Assembly: GCA_965209225.1 (NCBI GenBank)
Contig: OZ242379.1
Coordinates: forward strand, 1,741,289 to 1,805,288
DNA length: 64,000 nucleotides
Source: Thermodesulfobacteriota bacterium
Lineage (GTDB): Bacteria; Desulfobacterota_D; UBA1144; Nemesobacterales; Nemesobacteraceae
Reading direction: 5' to 3'
The notes beneath the pieces were generated by a model that was not told the DNA's origin, ran no database searches, and saw only the letters and a program-made list of their open reading frames with translations. Positions within the stretch are counted from its first letter, which is position 1. Every line of letters starts with the position of its first letter. Shown in pieces: positions 55,108-56,862 of the stretch. The translations under genes were made by a program, and so were the position numbers.

Positions 55108-55761
55108 TTAACGTATGACATGTGCGGAGTCTGTTCTTTCTTCTTGTTCAAACAGTTTTGAAAGCCAGTCCACGAATAACGAGTTTAACTGCGTTTTTGC
55201 AGTCAGGTCTCCGGTGCCGATGGCCGCTCCCATCCTGTTGGGTTTTTTTCTGGTGGCCAACCAGGCGTACAGTTTCGCTTTATCCGATTTTGTCGAGGAA
55301 AATTTTCTGGCATCGTCGGGAATGCCGTTTATGAAGGATTGCGCCAGCGGCCATACCTGATCCTGGTCTCCGATCATTTTTATTACGAAGTCTTCAATCT
55401 CTCCTCTCGAAATGTTGTCAGGCATCAGCCATACCCCGACCGCAGGACCTCTGTCGCCGTCTATGATTGTACCGCGCGGGTCGGGGTTATCCGGGGGCGT
55501 AAAACCTGCTTCAGTGAGTTTCTTCCTGATATCGTTCCACCGCTGTCTGGGACAATCGTTGCTGTCCATGACAAATCCGACGGATTTGCGTCCGGCAACC
55601 TTGGTTTCCGGACCGATATGTCTCAGAATGTTCGGGAATCCTTCGGATTCCTTTATGACAAACTCAAGATTCCGCAGACATTGGTCCCGGATATGTCTGA
55701 TGACGTGCTTGTCGTCCTGCCCTTCCACCACAAGAAGATGCTTTTTGTCAGCCTCGGCCAT
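55108..55761 (-). CDS. TOPRIM-like (DUF4435/RloB-like) protein, candidate nuclease partner of the upstream ABC ATPase
   Basis: N-terminus …KKHLLVVEGQDDKHVIRHI… (invariant Glu of a Toprim-type fold) and …GFVMDSNDCP… acidic cluster. 217 aa. 5-nt overlap with the ATPase gene. Confidence 0.5.
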   Translation of the reverse strand: MAEADKKHLLVVEGQDDKHVIRHIRDQCLRNLEFVIKESEGFPNILRHIGPETKVAGRKSVGFVMDSNDCPRQRWNDIRKKLTEAGFTPPDNPDPRGTIIDGDRGPAVGVWLMPDNISRGEIEDFVIKMIGDQDQVWPLAQSFINGIPDDARKFSSTKSDKAKLYAWLATRKKPNRMGAAIGTGDLTAKTQLNSLFVDWLSKLFEQEERTDSAHVIR

Positions 55762-55764
55762 TTC

Positions 55765-56862
55765 TTACCTTACTTCTATGTTGTATTCAGCGGCGGCGGC
55801 AAGCTCCTCTTCTGAATACCTCACGCATCTGGTTTCTCCCTCTTCCCGTTCAAGGCGAACCAGAACGCCTGAAACGTCTTCTGTCTCGGTTGCGGCCTGC
55901 GCGAAGCCTCTTACGCAGTCAAAACTGTGGGTCGTCGCGAAAACCTGGGTATTGTTTTCCCGAGCGGTCCGAAGAATCATTCTCCAGAGCTTGTGCTGAG
56001 CCGTGTAGTGAATCCCGTTTTCCGCTTCATCAATGAGAAGGAATCCGCCGCGGCAGTTCGCAAGAGCGATAGCGATACCGAACAGCCTGACAGCTCCGTC
56101 ACCGAGGCTTTTAAGGGGGACGGGGCCGTGCTTTCCAATCCTGACCACAGCCCGCCTGCCTCTCCAGCGACCTGAAGACCCTTCTTCCCCGATCATGGCT
56201 ATGCGGTCCACCGGATTATCGAGGACTATGTTAAGGGCATTGATAGCGAGGTTCTCGTCTTCAGTGAGCGTGATCTCGTCCCAGAGTTCCGCGATTGTCC
56301 TGTTGGACAAAATTTCCGGGCCCAGCCACTGCGATTTCAACGCTTCTGTGTGCTCGTTTTTGAGGGTGTCGCCTTGGATACCCCTTTTTCTTCTCCAGTT
56401 ATTCTCGGACAGACCGAAGATCAGACTGTGTTCACCCTGAAAATAAACCCTGAGGATGGGAACGTCCTTGTCTGGGAGGTCGTCTTTGTCATCTGGGTCG
56501 CCCAGCTCTATTTCGAGTTTTCCGGTGTCATTTTCCGCACCGATTTCTATTCGTGTTCCCATGGAAGGTTCCCGGCCATGAAAAAGCGCCTTGAAATCCA
56601 GGAAATTATCTTTCTCGCTGTCTTTTTTAACGCCGGAGATAAACTCTTCGCGTCCCGCGATTAATTCGGCAAGCACGGATTCATCCGCGCGGGAAGAGTA
56701 TATTTTTACTGCTTCAAGGATCGATGTCTTCCCCGTGCCGTTTTTTCCAGCAAACAGGTTTACGCGGCCTAATTCCCGAATTGAAAGCTTGTCAAAACAC
56801 CTAAATCCCCTTATTGATAAGTGAGGGATATGAAGCCCGTTATTTGGTAGTTCTTTAGGCAT
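55765..56862 (-). CDS. ABC-type (AAA_21-like) ATPase
   Basis: Walker A AGKNGTGKTSILEA, Walker B/D-loop GGFLLIDEAENGIH, H-loop ATTHS. 365 aa. Overlaps the CARF gene's stop by 8 nt. Confidence 0.75.
   Translation of the reverse strand: MPKELPNNGLHIPHLSIRGFRCFDKLSIRELGRVNLFAGKNGTGKTSILEAVKIYSSRADESVLAELIAGREEFISGVKKDSEKDNFLDFKALFHGREPSMGTRIEIGAENDTGKLEIELGDPDDKDDLPDKDVPILRVYFQGEHSLIFGLSENNWRRKRGIQGDTLKNEHTEALKSQWLGPEILSNRTIAELWDEITLTEDENLAINALNIVLDNPVDRIAMIGEEGSSGRWRGRRAVVRIGKHGPVPLKSLGDGAVRLFGIAIALANCRGGFLLIDEAENGIHYTAQHKLWRMILRTARENNTQVFATTHSFDCVRGFAQAATETEDVSGVLVRLEREEGETRCVRYSEEELAAAAEYNIEVR

Follow-up and report, generated by a model that had tools for sequence, protein, structure and literature searches.

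Two adjacent genes on the minus strand of a 64,000-nucleotide (nt) stretch of DNA (the window) from a Thermodesulfobacteriota bacterium (GenBank assembly GCA_965209225.1, contig OZ242379.1) are described here. The upstream gene (55765..56862) encodes an ABC-type, SMC/Rad50-like ATPase of 365 amino acids (aa) that resembles PDC-M38A and AbiLi, and the downstream gene (55108..55761) encodes a DUF3226 protein of 217 aa, corresponding to PDC-M38B, which has a predicted OLD-type Toprim-like fold and is a putative nuclease effector; both genes have an ATG start. Strand, coordinates, and lengths agree with those of an earlier note made from the sequence alone, and the motifs quoted there (Walker A, Walker B, and LLVVEGQDDKHVI) were reproduced by translation. 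The ATPase ATG at 56862 and the stop codon TAA (56855-56857) of the preceding gene, which encodes a CARF-HEPN protein (Csx1), form an 8-nt overlap of the operon type (ATGCCTAA; 56855..56862, minus strand), as had been stated, and the same overlap is found in two relatives, L003 and L004. The two genes of the pair had also been described as overlapping by 5 nt; they are in fact separated by the 3-nt spacer GAA (55762..55764, minus strand) between the ATPase stop codon TAA and the DUF3226 ATG. The letters across this junction are GTA AGG TAA GAA ATG, both genes share one frame, and a start further upstream is impossible for the DUF3226 open reading frame (ORF) because the ATPase stop codon lies in its frame. 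Read-through of the stop codon in the same-frame TAA GAA ATG (55762-55767, minus strand) would yield an OLD-like ATPase-DUF3226 fusion.

The relatives used for comparison comprise the best 80 of at least 480 relatives from a scan of one genome per species, which are the closest of them at 42-91% identity, and three loci from exact look-ups, giving 83 related loci (L001 and following) in which ORFs were called by a simple, greedy longest-ORF procedure. The ATPase gene lies directly upstream of the DUF3226 gene on the same strand in all 83 loci, and the spacer measures 2-6 nt in 58 of them, so that the frame relationship seen in the window is not conserved. The ratio of nonsynonymous to synonymous substitution rates (dN/dS) of the pair against its relatives is 0.05-0.25. 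The strong family matches described below, the recurrence in every related locus, and these ratios establish both ORFs as real genes rather than chance reading frames.

The ATPase carries a Walker A motif, GKNGTGKTS (residues 39-47; 56722..56748), a Walker B and D-loop segment, FLLIDEAENGIH (residues 274-285; 56008..56043), an ABC signature-like SLGDG (56095-56109), and an H-loop ATTH (55927-55938), all read by translation of the minus strand. G39, N41, G44, and K45 of Walker A and L275, D278, E279, E281, N282, G283, and H285 of the Walker B/D-loop segment are invariant across 70 homologues, and all nucleotide-binding motifs are at least 90% conserved among 78 family members. Comparison with hidden Markov models (HMMs) of Pfam, a check proposed earlier, returned both AAA_15 (1.3e-22) and AAA_21 (6e-19). 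In PADLOC, the top match is PDC-M38A PDLC04611 (1.1e-82; residues 14-365 on model positions 4-383 of 383), followed by an end-to-end match to AbiLi PDLC02336 (7.1e-51; residues 14-365 on 4-340 of 340) and by weaker matches to AriA (4e-23), HEC-01A (about 1e-15), GajA, and PtuA. An AlphaFold model built with 70 homologues (pLDDT 84.8) resembles SMC/Rad50-type ABC heads, and in structure-model matches AriA comes no nearer than PtuA, SMC, or Rad50. The upstream protein is therefore an ABC ATPase of the SMC/Rad50 type that has kept every catalytic motif, and it presents the intact Walker A, Walker B, signature, and H-loop of the N-terminal-type ABC ATPase that characterizes OLD-type proteins.

The small protein is a member of Pfam DUF3226 (PF11536; 2.2e-44, 152.2 bits against a cut-off of 27, residues 8-205 on 2-208 of 208) and matches PADLOC PDC-M38B PDLC04624 (1.4e-36, residues 7-205 on 13-219 of 220). 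Nothing beyond these two models was returned from Pfam and PADLOC at E≤10, and NCBIfam holds no model for the protein. DUF4435, RloB, the Toprim families, AbiLii, and AriB were all tried as labels for it and gave no HMM match at that threshold; the DUF4435/RloB-like description in the earlier note is accordingly replaced by DUF3226/PDC-M38B. A sequence search of the PDB with the single protein and with a 66-sequence profile returned nothing meaningful, and no papers were found in a literature search on DUF3226, PF11536, and PDC-M38. The Toprim core proposed from the N-terminal sequence is borne out by structure prediction, since the nearest matches of the high-confidence model are PH0156 and the Toprim parts of OLD nucleases, of retron Ec67, and of GajA, with generic Rossmann-like folds ranked below. 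The top Foldseek match is the C-terminal region of Xanthomonas OLD (E 7.6e-3, probability 0.98), and the next, with weak scores, are RNase M5 and AriB (8v46_D, E 0.05). PH0156, a structural-genomics protein of Pyrococcus horikoshii (PDB 2P62), shares 13% identity with the small protein and was missed by the bacterial-clade profile. In a published HHpred analysis, PH0156/2P62 was likewise the best match of lactococcal AriB, a DUF4435 protein (PMC11381338), which connects DUF3226 with DUF4435 at the level of the superfamily. The downstream protein is thus predicted to have the Toprim-plus-helical fold of OLD nuclease C-terminal regions, the modelled Toprim fold bearing the helical insertion or extension expected of that type.

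The residues conserved in this protein suggest where a metal site might lie. Strand 1 with its acidic cluster, LLVVEGQDDKHVI (55699..55737, minus strand; translation and alignment), contains the invariant E13 together with D16, D17, and H19, each at least 97% conserved; E13 stands at the C-terminal end of model strand 8-12, where the Toprim glutamate sits, and D17 is at position E+4 relative to it, comparable to E400/E404 of Burkholderia (Bp) OLD (PMC6755086). In place of the Toprim DxD motif, D66-S-N68-D69 is found at the end of strand 60-66 (55555..55566, minus strand; model and alignment), with D66 invariant, N68 in 63 of 66 homologues, and D69 in 47 of 66. A third segment, E121-I-E123-D124 (55390..55401, minus strand), is a candidate second metal site from the alignment, E123 being invariant and E121 present in 64 of 66 homologues. 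Altogether, E13, D16, D17, H19, D66, N68, N116, E121, and E123 are invariant or nearly so, and the conserved residues map to the ends of strands 1 and 3 and to just past strand 107-113 of the model. The metal ligands of Bp OLD are E400/E404, D455-x-D457, and T506-x-E508 (PMC6755086). The spacing of the conserved acidic residues recalls these ligands, although the mapping from pattern and secondary structure is putative, and E121/E123 may be comparable to T506/E508. OLD nucleases have DxD where the small protein has D-x-N, and its chemistry may differ from that of OLD because the second Asp is replaced by Asn.

Both HMMs of PDC-M38 are matched nearly end to end by adjacent, co-directional genes, and the pair is therefore not new but already catalogued, as a candidate phage-defence system. 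The PDC models go back to cassettes that lie within BREX, DISARM, and type I restriction-modification (R-M) systems (Payne et al., bioRxiv 10.1101/2024.01.29.577857); like the founding examples, the present copy is embedded in another defence operon, although the host operon here is type III CRISPR-Cas. Assignment to PDC-M38 names the pair without explaining its function, and better-known systems were compared for this reason. The AbiL system of Lactococcus has the same order of an ABC ATPase gene followed by a gene for a small OLD-type Toprim-fold protein, and its AbiLi model is matched over the full length; AbiLii is likewise Toprim/OLD-like only at the structure level (PMC13064643), although the small subunit here has no match to AbiLii (PADLOC) or RloB (Pfam). 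PARIS, a "Class 4" split OLD system, uses as AriB a DUF4435 protein of about 280-300 aa, whereas the protein here is a DUF3226 protein of 217 aa lacking a DUF4435 match, and the 365-aa ATPase is no nearer to AriA than to the other ABC proteins named above. PARIS is further characterized by assembly into hexamers, by triggering through Ocr, and by translation arrest upon AriB release, whereas the present pair is known from sequence and models. The PARIS/AbiL-like architecture proposed earlier consequently stands at the level of folds, as an ABC ATPase with a Toprim-fold partner in the split OLD class, but not at the level of family labels.

Among the OLD nucleases themselves (Class 1 of Thermus scotoductus, Class 2 of Burkholderia and Xanthomonas, GajA, and the effectors of retrons Ec67/Eco8), ATPase and Toprim reside in a single polypeptide in Classes 1-3 and 5, whereas here the domains lie on two polypeptides, encoded by two ORFs with a stop codon between them. 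The pair furthermore has neither a UvrD-type helicase nor a retron partner and shows no sequence-level similarity to the OLD family. HEC-01, an ABC ATPase with a TOPRIM protein embedded in Hma systems, follows the same two-domain logic and the same habit of embedding, and the ATPase matches its HEC-01A models at about 1e-15, although the small subunit has no HEC-01B match.

The genes with which the pair is associated belong to a minimal type III module in the region 58105-63772 of the minus strand. In the order toward the pair, the same strand carries csb1-csb2 (type I-G), cas10, csm2, csm3, csm4, and csx1; cas10 to csm4 occupy 58105..61685, and the module comprises cas10, csm2, csm3, csm4, and csx1, with no csm5 or cas6. 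Cas10 (492 aa) retains GGDD and has no HD match. The csx1 gene (56855..58126) encodes a cyclic-oligoadenylate (cOA)-responsive effector with matches to NCBIfam TIGR02710 (3.5e-54), the Pfam Csm6 HEPN domain (2.3e-26), and PADLOC CARF_HEPN/Csx1 (about 1e-64 to 1e-69), and its RNGSLLAH motif lies at residue 375. The module begins 22 nt downstream of csb1-csb2 and is co-directional with them. The I-G genes of L003 and L001 are oriented divergently to cas10 and lack nucleotide similarity to those of the window; the arrangement in the window may be a hybrid operon or a rearrangement in this lineage. No CRISPR array was found across the 64-kb window by a k-mer periodicity scan and Tandem Repeats Finder, despite the two cas modules at its right end, and any array must lie past position 64000.

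The 8-nt overlap of start and stop codons makes co-transcription of the pair with the type III operon probable. A scan for promoters and terminators over 54600-62000 gave sites fewer than, or no more numerous than, those of shuffled controls, and it supports neither the presence nor the absence of an internal promoter. This organization raises the possibility that the pair is a genuine type III accessory module, coupled to the Csm complex or to cOA (for example, via Csx1), that provides a DNA- or tRNA-cutting arm for the HD-less Cas10. Conservation of the overlap in the window, L003, and L004 favours such a role, as do the absence of an HD match in Cas10, which a separate nuclease could compensate, and the lack of a predicted promoter for the pair, the latter being a weak test. 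Against it, Pfam and PADLOC scans of the two proteins reveal no CARF, SAVED, or other domain for nucleotide sensing, the domains found being an ABC ATPase and DUF3226, and an association recurring across lineages is not observed: the pair has type III genes at its flank in the window, L003, and L004 alone, which share the same arrangement at 90-93% nucleotide identity and represent one lineage among the 83 loci (80 of them species-level). No homologue of Cas10, Csm2-4, or CARF-HEPN was detected in the other 78 loci by single-sequence phmmer with the window proteins, complemented by Pfam summaries of neighbouring genes. Relatives at about 70% identity (L002 and L005) carry the pair among housekeeping genes, outside any cas context, and members of the family are found on plasmids and in BREX/R-M surroundings that lack cas genes.

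The fate of the module in L001 is informative in this respect. This relative (88% protein identity) shares the chromosomal neighbourhood of the window, including the SNF2 gene downstream, and its type III genes have been lost through a deletion of roughly 4.6 kb, which leaves ~100 nt at the start of cas10 (window ~61662-61571) fused to ~95 nt at the end of csx1 (from ~56948). The scar (L001 8651-8845) is a 64-aa chimeric ORF that retains the Cas10 N-terminal CDFSGI..YVLG motif, and the former cas10 upstream region now stands directly before the ATPase-DUF3226 pair. The pair itself is intact, with dN/dS against the window of 0.10 for the ATPase and 0.17 for DUF3226, indicating purifying selection, and I-G cas genes still adjoin it. 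Loss of the type III genes with retention of the pair argues that the pair works on its own, and L001 thus represents a natural experiment. A type III accessory role is, in view of these observations, highly improbable; the link to type III suggested by the earlier note is largely undone by the L001 deletion, the housekeeping context of L002 and L005, and the 78 loci without type III genes, and the proposed neighbourhood comparison finds the pair beside type III genes, among the 83 loci, in L003 and L004 alone, apart from the window itself.

The family to which the pair belongs is large. An HMM scan of 1.84 billion cluster representatives (at 50% identity) with DUF3226 yielded 4,492 members at E≤1e-3, and the top 150 are without exception stand-alone proteins, about 145-275 aa long. 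The relatives are mostly marine or sponge-associated metagenome-assembled genomes (MAGs), which, together with the RTX and haem peroxidase genes of the window described below, hints at a host-associated or marine source. Most copies are chromosomal, four matches being found among 72,556 plasmids; the pair is nevertheless kept at 23-27% identity on Acinetobacter and Plesiomonas plasmids, where the genes are annotated "ATP-binding protein/AAA family ATPase" and "DUF3226 domain-containing protein". The Acinetobacter copy lies on a 14-kb MOBQ plasmid and adjoins RelE/ParE, and the Plesiomonas copy adjoins P2-like tail genes. These plasmid copies allow for a toxin-antitoxin (TA)-like addiction cassette that stabilizes the carrier DNA segment or plasmid without dedicated phage sensing. 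The RelE/ParE neighbour, the survival of the pair beside the L001 deletion, and the precedent of PARIS, which formally behaves as a type II TA system (PMC10802264), are in keeping with this interpretation. With so few plasmid matches and a mostly chromosomal distribution it appears very unlikely, and TA behaviour and defence can in any case coexist.

Pfam analysis of 80 upstream and 70 downstream neighbours revealed heterogeneous flanks; among the families listed, neither a cas or CARF family nor a conserved third gene recurs beside the pair. Defence-related genes are nevertheless present among the neighbours. A large DNA methylase directly precedes the pair in five loci, namely PglX/Eco57I-like methylases of 1,336 aa in L019 (4376-8386) and L065 (4740-8756), DUF1156 methylases 14-15 nt upstream in L022 (5551-8802) and L074 (5511-8831), and an N6_N4_Mtase in L080 (5454-8771), and in these loci the pair appears to be embedded in BREX/R-M-like systems. 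DUF499 proteins lie downstream of the pair in two of the five. Further defence-related neighbours among the loci are Schlafen/AlbA_2, HEPN_Swt1, DUF499, and NYN. A k-mer CRISPR finder located a real array near the pair in one of the 83 loci, L025 (22-5871; a Dehalococcoidia MAG), where a cas3-like helicase, cas4, and cas1 (type I) and 32 repeats lie ~3 kb upstream of a 47%-identical pair.

Repeated placement directly behind other defence genes (PglX-like, DUF1156, and N6_N4 methylases, and type III cas genes here) is what would be expected if, by analogy, the pair guarded its host system, the ATPase sensing phage anti-defence proteins (anti-CRISPR, anti-BREX, or DNA mimics directed against R-M) and releasing the Toprim nuclease as a second line. 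The PDC definition is itself based on embedding, PARIS fires on the anti-restriction protein Ocr, and retention in L001 after type III loss is compatible with a guard, since I-G cas genes are still next door. Most of the 80 loci, however, do not lie in a recognizable defence system, no trigger can be identified from the sequence, and the idea is purely analogical, so that a guarding function is regarded as unlikely. A narrower version, in which the cassette would be wired to its host operon so as to sense inhibitors of it (of the anti-CRISPR or ring-nuclease type in the case of type III) and unleash the nuclease, embedding then reflecting a general PARIS-like anti-anti-defence, is given little credence.

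Many other loci have housekeeping neighbours. In seven Dehalococcoidia/Chloroflexota MAGs (L031, L039, L040, L046, L049, L053, and L075; about 5600-8900), the pair is preceded on the same strand, at a distance of 8-213 nt, by a full-length uvrA, a proximity that could reflect either conserved gene order or operonic coupling to DNA repair. It may accordingly be asked whether the pair serves DNA repair or chromosome maintenance, as a RecF/Rad50-like ATPase with a Toprim nickase of the kind seen in archaeal Cran1, its position beside cas genes being incidental. Besides uvrA and the many metabolic-gene neighbours, this explanation could draw on an ATPase fold as near to SMC/Rad50/RecF as to AriA and on Cran1 itself, a non-defence protein of the OLD family (PMC12796447). 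The flanks, by contrast, vary by genome; the pair is carried, beside a TA pair, by small mobilizable plasmids and is embedded in BREX/R-M-like and CRISPR loci; the best-scoring PADLOC models are all defence ATPases; and L004 tolerates a nonsense codon in the ATPase gene, which would be unexpected for an essential function. A housekeeping role is for these reasons considered improbable.

The explanation that we consider probable is that the pair is an autonomous two-gene ATPase-DUF3226 cassette, a PDC-M38 candidate that is in effect an OLD-type nuclease split over two polypeptides, with gating of the nuclease by analogy. It is embedded in the cas operon but probably functionally independent of it, as suggested by the absence of a cOA-sensing domain, the lineage-specific association, and the survival of the cassette after type III loss. 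Juxtaposition with type III genes looks like defence-island "embedding", a habit shared with the BREX/R-M-type methylase loci, rather than dependence on cOA. In PARIS, the Toprim nuclease AriB is kept sequestered by a hexamer of an SMC-like ATPase and is set free in response to a phage anti-restriction protein (PMC10802264); OLD and Gabija place a two-metal Toprim nuclease under the control of the ATPase (PMC6755086, PMC12796447). By analogy, a PARIS-like mechanism in which the ATPase gates the nuclease is most likely here: an ATPase oligomer would hold or gate the Toprim nuclease, infection, signalled by a phage protein or by an altered nucleotide pool, would be sensed and lead the ATPase to release or activate it, and the nuclease would cut nucleic acid (tRNA or DNA), stopping phage growth, probably at a cost to the cell.

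Several observations weigh against this interpretation. PDC-M38 is so far no more than a listed candidate, and the related HEC-01 gave no defence in the assays of the same study (Payne et al., bioRxiv 10.1101/2024.01.29.577857). Viral collections contain hardly any members of the family, with none among 50,697 phage records and five distant matches in IMG/VR. The small subunit falls outside PARIS and AbiL at the sequence level, Asn replaces the second Asp of the DxD motif in nearly all homologues, and Cran1 together with the housekeeping neighbours, uvrA included, offers a precedent outside defence. Co-transcription with the cas genes has the 8-nt overlap as its sole basis. Finally, the ATPase orthologue of L004, the closest species-level relative of the window, is interrupted by one in-frame stop codon, aligned with W293 of the window protein (KL*RMIL; L004 9779-9781), which marks either a pseudogene or a MAG consensus error.

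If the interpretation is correct, the window adds one more copy, and a new context, to a large uncharacterized family of ATPase-Toprim pairs without revealing a new principle. It assigns an OLD-type Toprim fold and a plausible predicted metal site to DUF3226, and it adds a type III CRISPR operon to the BREX and R-M systems on which the "guilt-by-embedding" pattern of PDC-M38 had been based. Split OLD-like systems such as PARIS and AbiL are only starting to be understood, and PDC-M38 is worth attention in this regard.

Downstream of the pair, at a distance of 249 nt on the minus strand, lies a gene for a SNF2/SWIM helicase of 1,112 aa (51520..54858) with an N-terminal SWIM zinc finger and similarity to DpdE (PADLOC, 1e-180) and ZorD (1e-110). 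No other dpd or Zorya genes were seen near it. The helicase was considered as a conserved third component of the cassette and set aside, as it adjoins the pair only in the window, L001, L003, and L004. Elsewhere in the window, a tmRNA gene is found at 10332-10682 on the plus strand (Rfam RF00023, 177 bits), and the region 44882-48572, also on the plus strand, encodes an RTX calcium-binding repeat protein (539 aa) followed by a protein of the animal haem peroxidase family (592 aa, 5e-140).

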